Notes: generated from the letters alone by a model not told the origin. A stretch of DNA of 64,000 nt from Candidatus Hydrogenedens sp. (GCA_049968235.1 JBMFRC010000007.1:98153-162152), one strand, 5' to 3'. Shown: positions 51,790 to 64,000, counted from the stretch's first letter. Program-made: numbers and translations.

Positions 51790-51926
51790 TTCCTCTTCCT
51801 TATATAGATTTTAAACATTTCACTAATCATACAAAGAAATTTACACAAAAAAAAACAATTTTCAGGACTTCTTTCCTGATAACTTGAAACTATACAAAGG
51901 TATTTTTATATAATATTTAACACGGT

Positions 51927-52002
51927 TGCCGGATCGCCTAATTGGTAGGGCACCTGACTCTGGATCAGGCTTGTCTAGGTTCGAGTCCTAGTCCGGCAGC
52001 CA
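51927..52002 (+). tRNA. tRNA-Gln (anticodon CTG)
   Basis: TGCCGGA acceptor stem pairing with TCCGGCA. Anticodon stem CCUGA/UCAGG with loop CUCUGGA, so the anticodon is CUG. TTCGAGT T-loop. CCA encoded. T-run follows. Confidence 0.8.
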
Positions 52003-52102
52003 TTTTTTTACCCAAAATTAGTCAAAACTTCGTAGAAACTTCTCACAAAAGTTTGTCTAAAGTAAAAAGGTTTTGCTAAAATATTTTTTTCTGCAATGAA
52101 GT

Positions 52103-52178
52103 GGCCCCTTCATCTAGCGGTTCAGGATGCAGGATTCTCAGTCCTGTCACACGGGTTCGAATCCCGTAGGGGCTGCCA
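52103..52178 (+). tRNA. tRNA-Glu (anticodon CTC)
   Basis: GGCCCCU UC AUCU AGCGGUUCA GGAU G CAGGA UUCUCAG UCCUG UCAC ACGGG UUCGAAU CCCGU AGGGGCU G CCA. The architecture closely parallels E. coli tRNA-Glu. Confidence 0.75.
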
Positions 52179-52210
52179 ATTATTTAAATGTTCCAAAAAG
52201 TTTATTTCTA

Positions 52211-52531
52211 ATGCACATTCGTTTACTACTATTTAAGGGCTGTCCTTCCGGACGGAAAGCGGAAGAGGTATTAAAACAGGTATTAACCGAAGAAAATATC
52301 TCTGCTCCCATTGAAATTATCGATGTTCCGGACATAGATACCGCCATTCGTGAACATTTTTTAGGTTCCCCAACTATACAAATAAACGGATTGGATATTG
52401 AACCTTCACGACAAAATGACCCACCTTGCCACGGTTGCCGATTATATCGTACTCCAGAAGGGACCAGCGGCATTCCACCAAAAGAACTTATTCGTTCTGC
52501 TCTTCACCGTGCTTTACAAAACGAAATATAG
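52211..52531 (+). CDS. Small thioredoxin-fold-like hypothetical protein
   Basis: Start trimmed to the ATG at 52211 so it no longer overlaps tRNA-Glu. 106 aa with a CHGC pair near the C-terminus and a GCPSG near the N-terminus. Confidence 0.4.
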   Translation: MHIRLLLFKGCPSGRKAEEVLKQVLTEENISAPIEIIDVPDIDTAIREHFLGSPTIQINGLDIEPSRQNDPPCHGCRLYRTPEGTSGIPPKELIRSALHRALQNEI

Positions 52532-52893
52532 TTCTTGAGAAACTGGATTCCGTCACTGCTTATTTTAAAACCTCTTAGTTTAAGGATATAGCAACAGTTT
52601 GTATATAGTACTTATATCCTATCAACAAAGATGGTAACTATAATCCACCCTCCTTTCCCTCTTCAAGACATATCTACCTACTATAATTCCGGGTTGTGTT
52701 TGTAATATCACTACTTTACACTTTCCTCGGTTATTTTCACACTACCTTATATAATATAATTTGCTATGCAACATCAGAGACAAAATCTTAATCCATTTCT
52801 CTTTTTTAGATTGTATTTGATAGATGATACATACATTGCCAATAATGCTAACACATTAATACATAACCATATAGTCTTCTGTAAGGTTTTTTT

Positions 52894-56354: not shown

Positions 56355-57365
56355 ATGAATTTCAAAATCATTTTGTGGGGATTATTATCTATTTTCCCCA
56401 TAATACTTTTTGCCGATGAAAATACTCTCCCTAAAATGAATCAAATACAGGTTATTGGAACACACAACAGTTATCATAAACGCCCTCAATATCTTTACTG
56501 GGCAAAAGAATATGCGAAACAAACAGAAGACTGGGATTATGAACATCTACCTTTAGATATGCAATTAGAAAATGGTGTCCGTAGTTTTGAGTTAGATATT
56601 CACAATACACCTGAAGGTTGGAAAGTAATGCATGTGCCTAAGTTCGACGATACAAGTACATGCCCAAATTTACAGGAATGTCTGAGAGTTATCCGTGAAT
56701 GGTCAGACAAAAACCAAAAACATGTGCCTATTAGTGTCTTACTTGAATGGAAGTCGGAAGGACCTGTTATTGATAAACGCATAACAGTTCCCAAAAAACA
56801 AGACGTTGAACGAATTGAAGAGGACATACTTGCGGTATGGGACAAAACTAGAATCATCACTCCGGATACTATTCGTGGCGATTTCAAAACACTGGAAGAA
56901 GCAATATTAAAAAAAGGTTGGCTTACTCTGGAACAATCCAGAGGAAAAATCATGTTTATCCTCCATAACAGAAGAAAATTAAGGGATTTCTATCTGGAAG
57001 GGCATCCTAATTTAGAGGGTCGATTAATGTTTGTCAATTCATATCCCGGTGAACCTTACTCTGCAACCATAATAATTGATAACCCTTTTCATGAAGAAAT
57101 ACCCGTATGGGTTCAAAAAGGATACTTTATTCGTGTTTTCGGTGCTAACCCCAAATCGCAGTCTCCCGACAAAATTAGATTAAAAGACGATAAAGCATTT
57201 TCATGTGGTGCTCAGGTTATCTCAACAAACAATCCGCCCGGCGAACCTTACCCCCAAACAGGTTACTTTTTAGTATTCCCCGATGGTTCCACAATTCGCT
57301 GGAATCCTATTAATGGTCCCTCAAATATTGATATATCCCCTGAATCAAAAACCTCCCAAAAATGA
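56355..57365 (+). CDS. Secreted PI-PLC X-domain-like phosphodiesterase
   Basis: 336 aa. Signal peptide. VIGTHNSYH and GVRSFELDIH match the catalytic X-domain signature of Ca-dependent phosphatidylinositol-specific phospholipase C-like enzymes. Confidence 0.6.
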   Translation: MNFKIILWGLLSIFPIILFADENTLPKMNQIQVIGTHNSYHKRPQYLYWAKEYAKQTEDWDYEHLPLDMQLENGVRSFELDIHNTPEGWKVMHVPKFDDTSTCPNLQECLRVIREWSDKNQKHVPISVLLEWKSEGPVIDKRITVPKKQDVERIEEDILAVWDKTRIITPDTIRGDFKTLEEAILKKGWLTLEQSRGKIMFILHNRRKLRDFYLEGHPNLEGRLMFVNSYPGEPYSATIIIDNPFHEEIPVWVQKGYFIRVFGANPKSQSPDKIRLKDDKAFSCGAQVISTNNPPGEPYPQTGYFLVFPDGSTIRWNPINGPSNIDISPESKTSQK

Positions 57366-57628
57366 ATTTCAGAACAACTGATTTAAGTCAATTCTATTCG
57401 AAACCTCCAAATAAAGGGAGTTAAAGTATTTTTAAGACAGGTTATACATAAGATTATGAGATAAAATCAGATTAATATTTGAAATGAAGGAAGAAAACAA
57501 TAAGAGGTTTATTTCTTTTCATTTTTTTCTTCACTGCCGTTCTTATTTCATTTATTATAAGGTCTCATTTAATAAAAAAATGTCTTATGTGTTTAAAAAA
57601 TTATTTTTTGAAAAAAATTAAAAAAGAC

Positions 57629-57661
57629 TTGACAAATACTTTTTTTTTTTTTTTGTATAAT
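57629..57661 (+). promoter_or_regulatory. Consensus sigma70-like promoter with a homopolymeric 15-T spacer
   Basis: Perfect -35 TTGACA (57629-57634) and perfect -10 TATAAT (57656-57661), separated by a 21-nt spacer that is mostly T15 (57640-57654). A GAGGAGG RBS precedes the ATG at 57743. Confidence 0.5.
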
Positions 57662-57742
57662 AAATTTAATGATAATTAAGTAGTAAGAAGTAGTATAAGT
57701 GACAATTGAATAATTAAACATCCAAAAGAGGAGGCCAAGGGC

Positions 57743-59284
57743 ATGAAAAAGGTTATATGCTTTACAGTAGTAGTAATCACTTTGTGTTTGGCGGTTTCCG
57801 TTCCGGTTTATAGCGTGGATATTACTTTTCTGAATAAGGTTCGTTCCGAGGAAAAGCAGGCATACGCGGAGATAAGCAATGGACAGGTAAAAAATGGATT
57901 GTGTCGGCTGGCTCGTTTGTTTAGGGATGCACCTCTGGATGATATAAGTTGTATAGAGCCGTTATTAGGTCCTTTTCAGTTATTTTGTTATGAGTTATCA
58001 ACTCATAATGAGTTAATAATGCAGAGTTTGGTAGATAGAAACGTTGTTGTTAATTCTGGACGGGAAGAGCCTGTATTACAACCGAATATGTATCCATCGG
58101 ACCGATTATTAATGGCGGGAGCGTATGCATTAAGTGAACCGATGGACACATTTTCCCACGCACATTTATACCACTATATTCCGCAGTTAATAGGAGATAA
58201 AGAGATCTTGCTGAAAGCAGTAGGAGTAGGATTGGGGCTGGTAATCTTTCCAGAAGGTGGAGAGGCACTGGGGATACCAGGGGATTATTATCGGTCATTA
58301 AGTATTCCTTATATGCGTAAACAAATGAGTGTGGAGATACAGCGGTTATTTGTGGAGGTTTATGTGCTTATGCGTATAGATGAGTTAAGTGGTGCTATAA
58401 AAGAGATGGGGAGTTATGGAAATGAATTGAGTAAGCGGGATGACAAGACCTTGTTGTTGGATAAATTAGAAGAATGGGGAATAACAAGGGAAGAGGTAGT
58501 AAGTATATCACCGGGATTGAATTGTATTTCATTAGGTCTGCCAAGTCTGGATGTAAAAGATATAAATTGGGATAGTTTTTTATTGTGGGCGGATATGCTG
58601 AGGAAAACGAGTGATTCGCGGGTGGGGTATATGCTATTGTTTATTTTACGTTATTCTCCATACTTTGGAGAAGAGGTGGAGAATAAGGTTAGAGGGGTAT
58701 TGGAGGATATATGTAAGGAGGTTGGTTCGACAGGTAGAGTGGAGGGGATATATGCTCGTTGTATATTAAATGACTGGGATGCAAGGTCACATCGCGTAAA
58801 AGACTTATATATGCGGACAAAAGAATTACTTCAGACAGGGGTATTACCAGGGGTATATAGTTTCCGGAGTTTGTATAAAGAGCGAGAACGAGCGATAAAT
58901 CTGGCATATAATTATTTTGTTAAATATTGTTGGTATGAATACGGAGTGGAGATAGGTGATGCAATGAGAAGTAGAGACTGGATGAGTAAAGAGTTATTTA
59001 AAAGGGAACCTTTGTATATGAGTATGCGTCGGATAAGGGATGCAACGAATGTATTGAAGTATAAGAAGAACATGGAAGAATTACTTAATTATTACAAGGA
59101 TATAGCGGAGCATACACCTAATCCAGAATTAAAAGAAGAGATGTTGTCCCTTATCAACTCTCCACTTAAGGAAATAGTTCCGCGATTAAAAAATAGTTCG
59201 TCTCCACCCGTAGGGGATATATTATTAGATTGGGCGAGAGAAAGAACAGTGGGGATGTCGGAGAAAAGAGAAAAAGGAAGATAA
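57743..59284 (+). CDS. Secreted hypothetical protein, first gene of a compositionally distinct island
   Basis: 513 aa. Signal peptide MKKVICFTVVVITLCLAVSVPVYS. GAGGAGG RBS. G/T-rich codon usage (AGG, GGG, GTT, TTG) unlike the rest of the window. Confidence 0.65.
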   Translation: MKKVICFTVVVITLCLAVSVPVYSVDITFLNKVRSEEKQAYAEISNGQVKNGLCRLARLFRDAPLDDISCIEPLLGPFQLFCYELSTHNELIMQSLVDRNVVVNSGREEPVLQPNMYPSDRLLMAGAYALSEPMDTFSHAHLYHYIPQLIGDKEILLKAVGVGLGLVIFPEGGEALGIPGDYYRSLSIPYMRKQMSVEIQRLFVEVYVLMRIDELSGAIKEMGSYGNELSKRDDKTLLLDKLEEWGITREEVVSISPGLNCISLGLPSLDVKDINWDSFLLWADMLRKTSDSRVGYMLLFILRYSPYFGEEVENKVRGVLEDICKEVGSTGRVEGIYARCILNDWDARSHRVKDLYMRTKELLQTGVLPGVYSFRSLYKERERAINLAYNYFVKYCWYEYGVEIGDAMRSRDWMSKELFKREPLYMSMRRIRDATNVLKYKKNMEELLNYYKDIAEHTPNPELKEEMLSLINSPLKEIVPRLKNSSSPPVGDILLDWARERTVGMSEKREKGR

Positions 59285-59321
59285 ATATGACTCTGTATAA
59301 TAAATTGAGGAGGAATAAAAT

Positions 59322-61252
59322 ATGAATAAGGAGACAAAGAGACAAAAAAACAAAGAAAATGTAAAGTATGGGTCAAAATATTAATAGTAACAATGGGAAT
59401 AGGAATAATAATCGGTATGAGTGGATGTCCTTCAGAAGTGTGTAAGTGCGGAAATAATGAGCGAACAATAACAACCGAGGTAATTCCACCCGGAGCAGGT
59501 AGCATCTCACTGGAACCGGAGAAAGAATCTTATACTCGGGGCGAGAATGTATTAGTTACATTTACTCCGGAAACTAATTACAAGATGTATATATGGATTG
59601 ATACAAGCAGTTTATTTCATCTTTGTCCATCAAATACAATACTTATGAGGGTAACAGATAATATTCAACTGACGGCGTTACCGTGGTGGACAAAGAGGAA
59701 AGTGCATGTGTTTTGGGATACGTCTTTAGTGGATGTAGAAGTTCCAGAAGATGCAGTAGTACAGAGTCCGGGTTCTTTCGAAGTAGAACGGGAGGTGGAT
59801 AGCCTGGCAACCTTTTCGGGACAGATAAAAGAAAATTTACCACCTTTACCACCTGGTCAAGTTCGGAAGATGCTATGGGATTTGGTATCAATACCAACAC
59901 ATGTAGGACAGAGATGGGGTGAAACGAGTTGTTCGATAGTAGTAGAGGGTCCGTCCTCACCGACAGCGGAGCCAATATACCTGTATGCAACAGCCCAAGC
60001 ATGGGATGAGAGCAGTCCTGTATATAGTATGAATATCTTTCCTGCTTCAATAGTAAATGGGGAAAATTTTGAAGGAAGACTATACTGTAACGGTTGCGGA
60101 TGTGAGTGGTGTACTTGTTTGTCAGCGTTCCCATATGAGTGGACGAATAGTGGGGTTTGTAGGAAGTTTATGTTTTCAATGCGTCCGTCTCCGTATGAAG
60201 CATTTGTGTTCTGGCTGGGAATGCAGGGCTATAATCTATCGCAAAATGCGGAATATACATTTGAGAGTCCAGGTGGAGGTAGTATGAACTTTTATGGACT
60301 TTATGCCCCTCGAATACATCTGTCGCCGTCTGTCGAGGGTCAGGGTGTGATTCACATAGAGTCAGGAGGGTATACAGAGCGATGGGGATATAACCCAATG
60401 CCATTTTGTATTGGAGGAGAATGTTCAGGATGGGTACAGGAGGATATATCTAATTGTGTCAATATCTTAGGCAATAAAGTGGTATTAAAAGCAGAACCGT
60501 GTAACACTTCATGGATATTTGACCATTGGGAATATTTGGACGCGGGTGAAGGTGAGGGAAATTCTGGTAGTTGGGTAGAAATACCGGATGTTGGAGATAG
60601 ACTGAATACCTATATGAACTGGTGGGGTTATCTGGATGAAACTCCGGGGCATCTCCATGTCCCCTGGGGAGAAACCAATTTCCAGGTCAAAGCCGTTTTT
60701 AGAAGATATGGTGTGTTTACGGTACAACCAAATGACCCTCAAATTTGGTGGCATACAATTATATACAATTTTTTTGAGGAAAAGGGTTATAATTCAATAA
60801 TGGTTTTTAGTTTTAATAATTTTTTTGCTATTAGTAATTTTAAAGCTAGTTTACATAATTTGCCTAAATACGATGTTTTTCTATATAGTGGGCACCATGC
60901 TGGTGGTTGTTTGGGGGATGTATCATGGCAAGATATTCTGATTAATAATCACGGGCATGGTTATTTGCTTGTATATCTTTTAGCATGTAATACGGCAAAT
61001 ATAATAATTTATAATGGTCAAGAGATTGATTTAGGGGAAAGATGGAAAGGTGCTTTTAATGCTTCATGTTTTATAGGATTTGAACAAATACTCTCCGAAC
61101 TAGCGGCACAATCTTTCGACACAATGTTTTACCATTTCTTAAGATATTATTTTCCACATTCACCTCGAATGGCTGCTGAATTAGCATCATGGACGACAAC
61201 AGTAGATGTGCGTATTTTAGGAGATGTCTATTTGCCGTTTTGTGAAGGTTGA
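59322..61252 (+). CDS. Cys-rich lipoprotein with C-terminal caspase-like (clan CD) His/Cys dyad motif; start region carries an apparent -1 frameshift in an A7 run
   Basis: The ATG at 59322 has a perfect GAGGAGG SD 9 nt upstream but stops after 20 codons. The main ORF (59393..61252) is in frame -1. Adding one A to a7 (59344-59350) gives MNKETKRQKKQRKCKVWVKILIVTMGIGIIIGMSGC, a textbook lipoprotein signal. The C-terminus holds DVFLYSGHHAGG...(31 aa)...YLLVYLLACNTAN. Confidence 0.6.
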
Positions 61253-61293
61253 TTTATAATGAAGATAAAGCAATCGATACAGGATTGAAAGTT

Positions 61294-62088
61294 ATGTTGA
61301 GATTGGGTGTTATCAGTTTATTTTTAATGGGCTTGGGTTGTGTCAATGAAACTTATAAGTATAACTCTCCGTATGTGATATGGGAATGGAGATTGGGTCC
61401 GCTAAAAGAATTTAAGGAAGGAATCTTTCAAAAGGAGATTGTTGAATTTGCAAATCTTTTTATAAAAGAGTTTTCGTTTGAAAAAGAGGATATATCGCCA
61501 TTTTTATATAGTAAATACTTTGCAGATGGGGATATATATATAACTTTAATATATGTCAGGGATGAGCAAAAAAGAAAACAATGGCAATCTTTACTGGTTG
61601 AATATAGAAAAATAGATATACCTATGTATACGGATTACATAGTTACAATTTCTTTGTTAACCAATCGAGTGGTTCAATTTTATAACGGGGGGGTTCTTAC
61701 TTCATATAGTGGAAACTTGCATTTTTCGAACTCATACATGGACCGTAGATTGAAGATGGACAACGAAAATAATGAGGGTACAATGTGTGTTGAGAAGATA
61801 TCGGAATATATAGGTATCCCTGAAGAAAAAAGAACAAGTGTAGAAATATTTAAAAGTCCATTAGGATTCTTGTATTTTAAGAGTAAGGAGAAAAGTTTTA
61901 ATATTTTGTCAGGACTTGACAGGTATAAAAGTATAAACGATTTTTATTTCGGTATAGTTAGGACCTTATATTTTGACCTGGGTTCCCTTGATAATGAAGA
62001 CAGACCTATATCGGCACCTCTTTTTGAGGGCGTATTAATTTGTATAAAAGATAAGTGGTATCCACTTTTTTATATTTATAATTTTTAA
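61294..62088 (+). CDS. Hypothetical lipoprotein/exported protein
   Basis: The ORF from TTG 61249 overlaps the stop of the previous gene by 4 nt. The likely start is ATG 61294, giving MLRLGVISLFLMGLGC (signal plus Cys). No known domain. Confidence 0.5.
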   Translation: MLRLGVISLFLMGLGCVNETYKYNSPYVIWEWRLGPLKEFKEGIFQKEIVEFANLFIKEFSFEKEDISPFLYSKYFADGDIYITLIYVRDEQKRKQWQSLLVEYRKIDIPMYTDYIVTISLLTNRVVQFYNGGVLTSYSGNLHFSNSYMDRRLKMDNENNEGTMCVEKISEYIGIPEEKRTSVEIFKSPLGFLYFKSKEKSFNILSGLDRYKSINDFYFGIVRTLYFDLGSLDNEDRPISAPLFEGVLICIKDKWYPLFYIYNF

Positions 62089-62140
62089 GTGTGCATGCTT
62101 TTAAGAAGATTGCTAATTATAATATGAAAAAAGGAAGTCA

Positions 62141-62986
62141 ATGATGCTTCTGAATCTTGTTAATTTATTATTAATATTGAGTGGAAATATGAGTGAGGAG
62201 CAAACCTACAAAGAAATAGCACGAAATTTTATCAATGATACAATTCATTATGAGGTAAAAGATATAACAATCGAAAAAACTCCTCTACGTTCTAATTTCC
62301 TTTTATATGACGAGCCAGTAATTACATTAAAAGCAGATAATGCTTACTTATTAAGTATTGGTGAAAAGAGCAAGATCGTATTAAGTTGTATCGGACTCTC
62401 AATTGAAGGAATAGAAGGAGAAAAAATTGATACTGTAAATGATGCTTTTAAGCAACTGTATGAGGTTTTCAAGTATTATAATCTTCCCTTGCAGATTGAA
62501 GAATGTTCTGTAAAGGAGTCTATCGATAAATATATTTTTCAAAAAGAACTTTTATACAACAATATTATATGTAGAAATTCAGGGATACGTGTAGAGATAC
62601 TAAAGAAAAACGGAACTACAATGTCTATACTTTACAAACCTTGTATTGAGCCTTTGAATAAGTTTCCTCCTAAGATTAATGAAAAAGAATTGGAGGAAGT
62701 TCTAAATAATTGGTTAAAAGAACAAACATATTTCCAAAAATATCCAGCAAAGATTTTAGGGGAAGAAAAACTCCGCATTGTAATTGCTCCTAAACTTAAC
62801 CAATACGACCCTAACTCATATAAGAATGTATTGATACAGAGAAGTGCTATAGAAAGGTATTATGCATACGAAATGTCTATCGTATGGGAGGAAAAAGGAA
62901 AAAAATGGTTTGGATGGGTTTGGATTGATGGGAATAGTAAAAAAGTAATAGGGGGATTTCCTAATTATAGTCAAGAAAAGGAATGA
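62141..62986 (+). CDS. Hypothetical exported protein
   Basis: 281 aa. AAGGAAG RBS. N-terminal hydrophobic MMLLNLVNLLLILSG. Confidence 0.55.
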   Translation: MMLLNLVNLLLILSGNMSEEQTYKEIARNFINDTIHYEVKDITIEKTPLRSNFLLYDEPVITLKADNAYLLSIGEKSKIVLSCIGLSIEGIEGEKIDTVNDAFKQLYEVFKYYNLPLQIEECSVKESIDKYIFQKELLYNNIICRNSGIRVEILKKNGTTMSILYKPCIEPLNKFPPKINEKELEEVLNNWLKEQTYFQKYPAKILGEEKLRIVIAPKLNQYDPNSYKNVLIQRSAIERYYAYEMSIVWEEKGKKWFGWVWIDGNSKKVIGGFPNYSQEKE

Positions 62987-63792
62987 AAATGGACAGGATA
63001 AAGCACTATAAACTATTTTTATTATTTCTGCTTATATTATCTTTGATTGGCGTATACTTTGTCGTGCGAAAGAATATTTCTGAGAACATAAAACTGAGAG
63101 GATACATTAGAGTTAAGGATACAGATATAGAAAATATGGGTGTAAGAAAAGAAACCTTTAAAGAGATAGTTACTTTGGTCAGAGAAATCACAAACACCAA
63201 AGATTTTTACAAGATGATATCTATGCCTATGAAATTAGACCTTAATGAACCCTCAGAAAGAACATATCATGCAAAAGGAAAAGACTGTATTAAGATTTAT
63301 TTTTTTATTCTTCCACCAAAAAACAACGGATATTATTCCCTATCTGAGGAACCATATATAGAAATACTCTTTGATAAAGATATCGGAAAAATTATTTACA
63401 TGTGTGATTATACAGATTTTTATCGAAAAATAAGTTTATCTGAAGATTCTAATCGAGAAGATGAAAATGGCTACAAGACCCTGATAAATCTTTTACTAAA
63501 CTACTATGGATATAGTCAAGAGCCTCTTGAATACTTTCAAGTAGAAACTCGAAAAATGGCAGGAAAGGTTAAAATTACTATGAAGTTGAGAGAAAATAGT
63601 GAGGAAGGTAATAATGCAAAATTAACGAAGACATTTTATATTATTTTTAATTCAAGATTTAATAAAATACAATATTTTGATGTATTTACATTAAATTATG
63701 GGAACACAGTTTTATGGTCTTACAGTCCAGATGCAAAATACTATGAAAATAGTCCCCTCATGTTACAAATAAAATCTCTTATAGACAATTAG
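62983..63792 (+). CDS. Hypothetical membrane-anchored protein
   Basis: 269 aa. Overlaps the previous stop by 4 nt (ATGA coupling). N-terminal TM LFLLFLLILSLIGVYFVV. Confidence 0.55.
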   Translation: MKMDRIKHYKLFLLFLLILSLIGVYFVVRKNISENIKLRGYIRVKDTDIENMGVRKETFKEIVTLVREITNTKDFYKMISMPMKLDLNEPSERTYHAKGKDCIKIYFFILPPKNNGYYSLSEEPYIEILFDKDIGKIIYMCDYTDFYRKISLSEDSNREDENGYKTLINLLLNYYGYSQEPLEYFQVETRKMAGKVKITMKLRENSEEGNNAKLTKTFYIIFNSRFNKIQYFDVFTLNYGNTVLWSYSPDAKYYENSPLMLQIKSLIDN

Positions 63793-63926
63793 CCCTAATT
63801 TTTATTATAAAGAAATATTCGTTGATAATGTAAAATTACAAGTGGAATTAAATAACACGATACAGAGGTTTTACCACCGGGAATACTTCTATGTAAGCAA
63901 ATAAGAAAAAGAGACGAGTAGTTGTA

Positions 63927-64000
63927 TGAAAGTGCCGAATGTTGGAGATAGACTGAATACCTATATGAACTGGTGAGGTTATCTGGATGAAACTCCGGGG
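63927..64000 (+). repeat. Partial near-identical copy of an internal segment of gene 59322..61252 (truncated by window end)
   Basis: 63935-64000 matches 60586-60651 (ccgGatgttggagatagactgaatacctatatgaactggtgGggttatctggatgaaactccgggg) with 2 mismatches. One mismatch converts TGG (Trp) to TGA within an ORF starting at ATG 63927 (MKVPNVGDRLNTYMNW*). Confidence 0.5.

Follow-up and report, generated by a model that had tools for sequence, protein, structure and literature searches.

A stretch of 64,000 nucleotides of DNA from Candidatus Hydrogenedens sp. (GCA_049968235.1, JBMFRC010000007.1:98153-162152; the whole stretch is called the window here) ends in a block of five consecutive plus-strand genes, O1 to O5 (57743-63792), and raises the question of what these genes do and where they came from. 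In the original prediction they were taken for a laterally acquired module that encodes a secreted or surface multi-protein system, possibly a surface protease complex. With moderate confidence, we consider that they form a lineage-restricted, recombining operon of effector and partner genes in the style of polymorphic toxins, arranged around a lipoprotein with a new clan CD peptidase domain.

The five open reading frames (ORFs) are tightly packed and lie exactly where they had been placed. The operon opens with O1 (57743-59284), whose product is a secreted protein of 513 amino acids with a cleavable signal peptide; O2 (59393-61252) encodes a lipoprotein of 619 amino acids with a lipobox (..GMSGC). 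They are followed by O3 (61249-62088; 264-279 amino acids, exported, with a lipobox-like motif, 31% GC), O4 (62141-62986; 281 amino acids, an exported partner protein) and O5 (62983-63792; 269 amino acids, with an N-terminal membrane anchor, 28.5% GC). The two 4-nucleotide overlaps described earlier, TTGA at 61249-61252 and ATGA at 62983-62986, are real; a possible alternative start of O3 is the ATG at 61294, which is the one annotated in a 99.8%-identical contig (L001). An N-terminal signal, a lipobox or a transmembrane-like segment is present in all five products, in agreement with the claim that each is exported, but the signal peptide of O2 is incomplete as encoded. An operon of exported or surface proteins is thus supported, and we infer that its products are located at the cell surface. 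No protein passes a Pfam, NCBIfam or PADLOC model, as had been anticipated: O1, O3, O4 and O5 have no match, and O2 has a borderline InlB B-repeat. The description as a five-gene block is right for the genes themselves, but the block continues past 63792 with a sixth element, which begins at 63918-63926 and runs off the window.

O2 consists of a B-repeat, a Cys-rich middle region, a second B-repeat-like segment that contains a conserved junction, and a C-terminal domain. It is this last domain (residues ~430-619, nucleotides 60680-61249, plus strand) that, by its fold and its His/Cys pattern, is a predicted clan CD cysteine peptidase. A profile of the domain, when searched against the PDB, matched the CHAT protease 8tl0 (E = 2.8e-5) and legumain (E = 0.065), and in both alignments the catalytic residues coincide. 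Indeed, HMMER places the putative dyad of His501 (60893-60895) and Cys532 (60986-60988), which is identified by alignment, profile match and model, on the GHG and NAC motifs of 8tl0 and on the NHG and EAC motifs of legumain. Among the ten aligned domains Gly500 and Cys532 are invariant and His501 is present in nine, and the G-H...A/S-C pattern follows hydrophobic strands. The domain has the caspase-hemoglobinase alpha/beta fold by which clan CD is recognized, and in its AlphaFold model (predicted local distance difference test score, pLDDT, of 82.5) the dyad residues follow strands E95-99 and E124-130. Only this domain model was used; the model of full-length O2, built with four sequences, had a pLDDT of 36. 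None of the curated models for Peptidase_C25, CHAT, C13 or C14, nor any from NCBIfam, matched O2 at E ≤ 0.1 or its ten relatives at E ≤ 0.01. A clan CD fold that matches no curated family argues for a divergent new family, rather than for C25 or CHAT as they are now defined. The guess of a surface protease therefore holds for the C-terminal domain of O2 at the level of predicted fold and putative catalytic dyad, and the domain is probably proteolytic.

The N-terminal B-repeat (residues 27-95, nucleotides 59471-59677) scores 23.7 bits with Pfam PF18998 (Flg_new_2), just above the cut-off of 23.6 (E = 4.7e-5). When a profile of O2 and its relatives was searched against 1.8 billion representatives, it retrieved hundreds of proteins with multiple B-repeats, and about ten proteins that share the middle and C-terminal parts of O2. 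Database entries P0001 and P0004, from a Candidatus Hydrogenedens sp. metagenome-assembled genome (MAG), match O2 and O1, respectively, at 99-100% identity; NCBI names the former 'InlB B-repeat-containing protein'.

The junction (60567-60703, plus strand; ..GDRLNTYMNWWGYLDETPGHLHVPWGETNFQVKAVFR) is a conserved stretch that lies directly before the variable peptidase domain and is repeated downstream of O5. Within the window, the repeat covers 83 nucleotides of O2 at 90% identity from 63918 and opens an orphan cassette (63918-64000, plus strand), with a second, divergent peptidase domain, that is cut by the window end. Contig L001, which comes from the same MAG (99.8% identity over 4777 nucleotides), extends the locus by 1.7 kb to the right, and shows the cassette intact. 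There, 125 of the 137 nucleotides of the junction are identical (91%), after which DNA similarity stops abruptly. The orphan encodes 234 amino acids, in which the junction (..YMNWWGYLD..HVPWG..F.VKA.FR) leads into a peptidase domain 39% identical to the C-terminus of O2, and it is followed by a gene for a 236-residue exported protein and by another ORF. The name 'C25 family cysteine peptidase' is given to the 234-residue protein by NCBI alone. In the window, an in-frame TGA codon (63974-63976) occupies the position of a TGG codon in L001 (4751-4753), and the silent cassette has therefore been inactivated in one strain only. A search of metagenome contigs with the exact 40 nucleotides at the end of L001 gave no match.

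Cassettes of this type are not confined to one genome. The orphans P0158, L006_257, P0028, P0031, P0043 and L016_241, at least five of them independent, all start at the YMNWW junction, and they lie in arrays of partner genes. Relatives of O2 have its lipobox, B-repeats and junction in common and differ in their C-termini, which may be of clan CD, DUF6973 (P0063), HExxH-containing (P0035) or other type (P0082). In addition, a module composed of a peptidase domain and an O4-like gene is 97% identical over 1.7 kb between two loci (L006, 12905-14614; L009, 11933-13643), whereas the O1 proteins of these loci are 49% identical overall (~90% over the first ~100 residues). One of the two loci carries the module as an orphan, and the other within its main gene. 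These two loci are therefore recombination mosaics. Alternative C-termini on a conserved N-terminal region and orphans that share the junction are both features by which polymorphic toxins are recognized, and swapping of cassettes may well be an ongoing process.

The partner genes were characterized through their distribution. The O4 family is the sole accessory family present in every related locus, in most of them directly after the peptidase-bearing gene; O4-like genes follow such a gene in L002, L004, L006, L009, L016 and L017. Because an O4-type gene comes after a peptidase-bearing one in each related locus, its product is most likely the cognate inhibitor or immunity protein of the peptidase. 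A PDB profile search for the family returned nothing meaningful, and its likeness to PepSY (PF03413) consists of a C-terminal motif seen by eye, with one of eight members matching at E = 0.036. No homologue of O3 was found in the other loci; its sole resemblance to the O4 family is a motif, ..Y(L/I)G(I/L)P.., that is weakly shared (hhalign probability 3%). O5 is weakly related to proteins of 292-293 amino acids in the L006 and L016 arrays, and the 236-residue protein of L001 also has relatives in these two arrays. We do not claim that the O3, O4, O5 and 236-residue types form one superfamily, the profile-profile probabilities being 0.2-29%.

Homologous clusters preceded by the same promoter occur in at least five related genomes: in Candidatus Hydrogenedens terephthalaticus (L004, L008, L011) and in four Logan/metagenome lineages (L002/L003, L005, L006 and L009/L012/L013), with a degraded cluster in L010. 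Homologues of O1 are 37-58% identical and were found only in contigs of the Hydrogenedens lineage; a PDB profile search with O1 gave no meaningful match. Exact-sequence look-ups with O2, O5 and an alternative start of O5 were without a match. As part of the reading that we prefer, and with the same moderate confidence, the operon is native to the Hydrogenedens lineage and restricted to it, rather than an island from a foreign donor. Variation within the strain is concentrated to the right. Compared to L007, another contig of the same MAG that spans the PI-PLC gene, the left spacer and most of O1, the window is 100% identical over 3078 nucleotides (0 differences), whereas the comparison with L001 gives 9 differences in 4777 nucleotides, of which 7 are non-synonymous and all fall within O2, O5 or the orphan (Fisher p = 0.015 for the contrast).

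Taken as an effector/partner operon, the locus could work as follows. A conserved promoter with consensus hexamers would drive transcription; O1 would be a secreted component, and the O2 lipoprotein would hold a gingipain/CHAT-type clan CD peptidase domain at the cell surface on a B-repeat stalk. The partners would be exported, with the O4 type acting as inhibitor or immunity protein. Downstream, promoterless orphan cassettes would each combine the conserved junction with a divergent peptidase domain and partner genes of their own, and recombination at the junction would exchange the C-terminal domain of the expressed gene, as in polymorphic toxin/effector loci. We suggest more tentatively, and as a possibility rather than an expectation, that the locus belongs to an undescribed polymorphic effector system of an uncultivated phylum that operates without a dedicated secretion machine, and that combines exchangeable peptidase domains, exported immunity-type partners of new families, O1, expression gated by homopolymers (the T run between the promoter hexamers and the A run near the start of O2) and a G>C skew of its own, kept across genomes.

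Several observations weigh against this assignment. Biological activity, toxicity and immunity are roles that we propose from sequence, models and analogy. In the window, O3 separates O2 from O4, and the orphan is followed by a partner of a different family; likewise, the DUF6973 variant is followed by an unrelated exported protein of 458 amino acids. The partners are large (270-350 amino acids) and homologous across loci, unlike typical immunity proteins, which are small and hypervariable. O1, the best-conserved gene, has no place in a toxin model. Catalysis is not always kept: in L006 (12781-13554), L009 (11158-12582) and P0031 a Glu replaces the catalytic His (..FVFQGEAYC..) and the Cys is retained, and this sub-lineage may consist of pseudo-peptidases. 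Lastly, the start of O2 is out of frame here and in L002, and the main gene may be off, decaying or dead in this strain. Some frameshifts in related loci are homopolymer differences that arise in sequencing, as between L004 and L011.

The start of O2 deserves a closer description for this reason. An apparent original start region (59322-59392, plus strand) consists of a ribosome-binding site and an ATG at 59322 that encodes MNKETKRQKN... A three-frame translation shows that this ATG and the body of O2 are in frames that differ by a single base, with an A7 tract (59344-59350) lying between them. The tract reads A_AAA_AAC in the frame of the ATG, with GGAG 11 nucleotides upstream, and one extra A or a -1 slip would complete the lipoprotein signal peptide MNKETKRQKKQRKCKVWVKILIVTMGIGIIIGMSGC. 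The region is identical in the independent contig L001; the orthologues in L004 and L005 are in frame, and L002 has a similar break in the signal-peptide region of O2 and a split O1. Programmed -1 frameshifting at A_AAA_AAC was considered and ruled out by the in-frame orthologues and by the lack of downstream structure: no stimulatory hairpin was found downstream of the A7 tract, where the RNA is less structured than its shuffles (z = +2.2). The offset is thus treated as a frame break at the DNA level.

We note that homopolymers are also a source of error in assemblies of this kind. L004 (derived from a single cell) and L011 (a metagenome contig) are 99.98% identical, and all three indels between them (L004 positions 695, 7757 and 11055) fall in C or G homopolymer runs; they are probably sequencing errors, and warn about frameshifts in such assemblies. 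O2 is split into 359 and 288 amino acids in L004 and L008 and is intact, with 630 amino acids, in L011. The split in L004 was ruled out as a biological feature, since L011 is otherwise identical and the two contigs differ here by G5 versus G6 in a homopolymer.

Comparison with known systems places the locus close to several of them. Polymorphic toxins include C-terminal caspase-like 'Tox-Caspase' domains that are exported via the Sec pathway (Zhang et al. 2012, PMC3482391). The operon resembles these in its conserved N-terminal export and stalk region, its variable C-terminus with a predicted caspase-like (clan CD) fold, its partner gene, in most loci directly downstream, its promoterless orphan cassettes that share the junction, and its mosaic exchange of modules. 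It differs from them in that it lacks RHS, filamentous or PAAR-type repeats and any known pre-toxin domain such as VENN, has its junction inside a B-repeat-like domain and an extra conserved first gene, O1, and encodes partners that are exported, large and homologous between loci. SitA/SitI of myxobacteria (PMC5562445) are lipoprotein polymorphic toxins and offer a parallel for a system that does without a dedicated secretion machine. They have no sequence relation to the operon. We know of no outer-membrane exchange in Hydrogenedens.

Among peptidases, the gingipains of Porphyromonas gingivalis (C25) likewise combine an extracellular cysteine peptidase with Ig-like domains, and the NCBI name of the orphan points to the same family; O2, however, has a lipoprotein anchor instead of a C-terminal domain for the type IX secretion system, lacks an N-terminal pro-domain, does not match the Pfam or NCBIfam C25 models and is 11-14% identical in sequence. 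SAVED-CHAT (8tl0), Csx29 TPR-CHAT and separase, which include the best profile match (8tl0) and the best Foldseek matches, align with O2 at the His and Cys residues. CHAT peptidases and separase are cytoplasmic proteins of signalling or defence with sensor domains; O2 is an exported lipoprotein that has no such domains and no Pfam CHAT match. In staphopain-staphostatin operons a cysteine-protease gene is followed by the gene of a dedicated protein partner, and staphostatins are small, cytoplasmic and lipocalin-like. The O2/O4-type protease and partner are similarly conserved as a pair; the O4 family differs from staphostatins in being exported, ~300 amino acids in length and unrelated. If the assignment is correct, the locus contributes a new clan CD peptidase family, four or more unannotated protein families, and a version of the polymorphic toxin/effector design in which the effector is anchored as a lipoprotein and the partners are exported. 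To our knowledge, Hydrogenedentota have no cultured representatives, and their interactions with neighbouring cells are almost unknown.

Could O2 simply be an ordinary gingipain-like protease for nutrition or surface processing, with partners that serve as pro-domain-like chaperones or inhibitors and a downstream copy that is a decaying tandem duplicate? Many exported hydrolases are encoded nearby, for example by the PI-PLC and GH95-like genes that are the left-hand neighbours of the operon, and both the stop codon in the orphan of the window and the homology of the partner families across loci would suit such a protease. However, a duplicate should decay uniformly, which is unlike the sharp fall from 91% DNA identity to none at the junction; several genomes have orphans that begin at this junction, and neither the identity mosaic of L006 and L009 nor the wider family with alternative C-terminal domains is in keeping with a decayed copy. 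Of the alternatives considered this one survives best, and we hold it to be rather unlikely.

The compositional contrast of the operon requires an explanation of its own. It had been described as an abrupt switch to G/T-rich codons after 57 kb in which the coding strand is A/C-rich. Indeed, the coding strand of the operon has G>C in all five genes: GC skew at third codon positions (GC3 skew) is strongest in O1 (+0.67) and amounts to +0.43, +0.34 and +0.25 in O2 to O4 and to only +0.03 in O5, with a tendency to decrease away from the promoter. The A/C-rich coding strand is found upstream in the plus-strand genes (GC3 skew -0.52 to +0.04), but not in the 14 large minus-strand ORFs, whose coding strand is G-rich (+0.23 to +0.65). 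The plus strand is C-rich throughout positions 1-57365, independent of gene orientation, and the first 57 kb thus contain two codon-usage classes, with GC3 skews of ~+0.45 for minus-strand and ~-0.3 for plus-strand genes. As for individual codons, AGG, GGG and TTG are frequent, but to the same extent as in the minus-strand genes of the window, and GTT is not enriched. Synonymous codon frequencies of the operon correlate at r = 0.95 with the minus-strand genes of the window and at r = 0.76 with its plus-strand genes, and codon log-likelihoods toward the minus-strand class are +0.35, +0.19, +0.18, +0.06 and 0.0 bits per codon for O1 to O5. The codon usage is that of the host core, with the qualification that it is the usage of the opposite strand. 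Nor is the operon an outlier by tetranucleotides: between its strand-symmetric signature and that of the remaining window the correlation is r = 0.81, within the range of background 6-kb windows on the same measure (0.864 ± 0.037, minimum 0.77). The GC content of O1 plus O2 (39.5%) is host-like (background gene mean 38.2 ± 3.1%), and that of O3-O5 (28.5-31.1%) lies below all 39 background genes (minimum 0.328). The contrast is thus the sign of the plus-strand skew, and not a new codon dialect. In strongly skewed genomes, a cluster on the 'wrong' strand will resemble foreign DNA in a codon-usage test.

A sign change of this kind could also be an effect of replication or rearrangement, either an origin-type switch from a C-rich to a G-rich strand or a recently inverted segment. 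The skew of the first 57 kb is strand-wide whatever the gene orientation, the operon genes class with the minus-strand genes by codon log-likelihood, and the skews of the operon, which are not below those of orthologues in weakly skewed genomes, are hard to fit with a lagging-strand position. Yet the same coding-strand G>C recurs in five other loci whose flanking genes, on either strand, are little skewed (mean GC3 skew 0.38 for cluster genes and 0.07 for flank genes; Mann-Whitney p = 7e-6); the flanks of L002, L004, L005 and L006 have little strand skew, and those of L010 are strongly skewed. Since the skew is conserved in homologous operons with weakly skewed flanks, it probably belongs to the operon and not to a replication switch at 57.5 kb. 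Moreover, loci without a skew switch have a promoter region homologous to the left spacer, and the skew fades along the operon from 0.67 to 0.03 instead of remaining flat. DnaA boxes (TTATCCACA, with at most one mismatch) number 24 in the window, against 24.6 expected, with none within 57000-58000; a replication origin in the spacer was ruled out by this lack of a cluster in or near it. Overall, we judge an effect of replication or inversion to be unlikely.

For an operon-specific skew, strong transcription from the consensus promoter, circulation by recombination within the lineage, or both, are tentatively put forward as the cause. This proposal, too, meets objections: the O2/O4-type pair in L017 has no G>C skew, third positions lack the AT skew that deamination of the non-template strand should produce, and a local replication-skew switch or inversion at 57.4-57.7 kb is possible, the right flank reaching only to the end of L001. 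An operon-specific G>C skew amid unskewed flanks is a small puzzle, which transcription-linked mutation or a shared mobile history could explain.

The left spacer (57366-57742, plus strand) is intergenic and holds the promoter and leader of the operon. It had been described as an AT-rich spacer of 380 bp with a consensus promoter, and does measure 377 bp with 23.3% GC, but its AT-richness is ordinary, several other spacers of the window having 21-26% GC. An A-rich tract (~57606-57628) precedes a -35 hexamer TTGACA (57629-57634), AATAC, a T15 run (57640-57654), a G and a -10 hexamer TATAAT (57656-57661). Both hexamers are perfect, but they are 21 nucleotides apart across the T15 run, beyond the 16-18 nucleotide range, and for this reason the promoter was missed by a promoter scan. 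The -10 hexamer is followed by a leader of ~80 nucleotides with a conserved ACAATTGAAT motif, and then by a ribosome-binding site, GAGGAGG (57728-57734). Every related locus has this arrangement in front of its O1 homologue. Across loci the T run measures 9-15 and the spacer 15-21 nucleotides; orthologous promoters have T9-T12 and spacers of 15-18 nucleotides, compared to T15 and 21 nucleotides in the window. Contigs that are 99.1-99.6% identical (L009, L012, L013) differ by T9 versus T10, and the promoter may, judging by its sequence, be controlled by slippage of the T run.

These tracts bring to mind a contingency locus, that is, a phase- and antigen-variable surface lipoprotein that is switched by homopolymers and varied by cassettes, for example in the evasion of phages or predators, and in which the peptidase fold is mainly a variable surface module. 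The variable T runs and spacers, the T9/T10 difference among near-identical contigs, the A7 tract between the start codon and the body of O2, the loss of the catalytic His in one sub-lineage and the silent cassettes with their shared junction could all be read in this way. However, the T15 and A7 tracts are unchanged between the two available assemblies of this strain, sequencing error can produce homopolymer differences, as between L004 and L011, and the otherwise conserved His and Cys residues favour catalysis. We consider such a locus improbable.

Mobility of the operon was assessed at its left border, where no tRNA gene, integrase, transposase or flanking repeat was found and the nearest tRNA gene is 5.5 kb off. 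No plasmid or phage relatives of O1 or of the O2 C-terminus were found, and the genes that flank the cluster differ in every lineage. Arrival in a recent genomic island, as a secreted multi-protein system from a compositionally different donor, is the most doubtful of the explanations: the third-position skew does switch exactly at the left spacer, O3-O5 are AT-rich, the flanks differ in every cluster-bearing genome, near-identical modules sit in divergent loci and the O2/O4-type pair of L017 looks clearly foreign, but the codon usage equals that of host minus-strand genes, O1 and O2 have host GC, the symmetric tetranucleotides are those of the window, the left side lacks the marks of a mobile element, a second assembly shares the left flank, and the close homologues together with their promoter all belong to the same lineage.

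The claim of acquisition from a foreign donor is therefore not supported, and a narrower form of lateral mobility is still supported by the differing flanks, the 97%-identical module, the AT-rich O3-O5 genes and the pair in L017. The latter (GCA_019455225.1, 8001-10949) comes from a genome of ~62% GC. The GC content is 47% in its O2-like lipoprotein gene and 38% in its O4-like gene; O1 is absent, and the genes on either side have 64-68% GC, so that the pair forms a sharply bounded low-GC patch. By its sequence, it appears to be a clear case of lateral transfer of a two-gene unit. Since an O2/O4-type pair occurs alone in L017, the pair would be a functional unit that is able to move laterally.

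Other features of the window were recorded alongside. A structured RNA leader was ruled out by the absence of an Rfam match in the spacer and leader. The ACAATTGAAT motif (57700-57712) contains a CAATTG palindrome, and AGTAGTA repeats are also present in the leader in all loci; motif and repeats could be a regulator site, to go by their sequence. The minimum of the cumulative GC skew over all positions lies near a 1.1-kb gap (51790-52893) that holds genes for tRNA-Gln (51927-52002) and tRNA-Glu (52103-52178). This is not a real switch point of the skew, because the next three genes are still negative or near zero at third positions (-0.25, +0.04 and -0.22). Opposite O1 and O2 there are two antisense ORFs on the minus strand (59092-59505 and 59643-60134; 137 and 163 amino acids, rich in Leu, Pro and Ser), which are most likely by-products of a G-rich, stop-poor composition and not genes.

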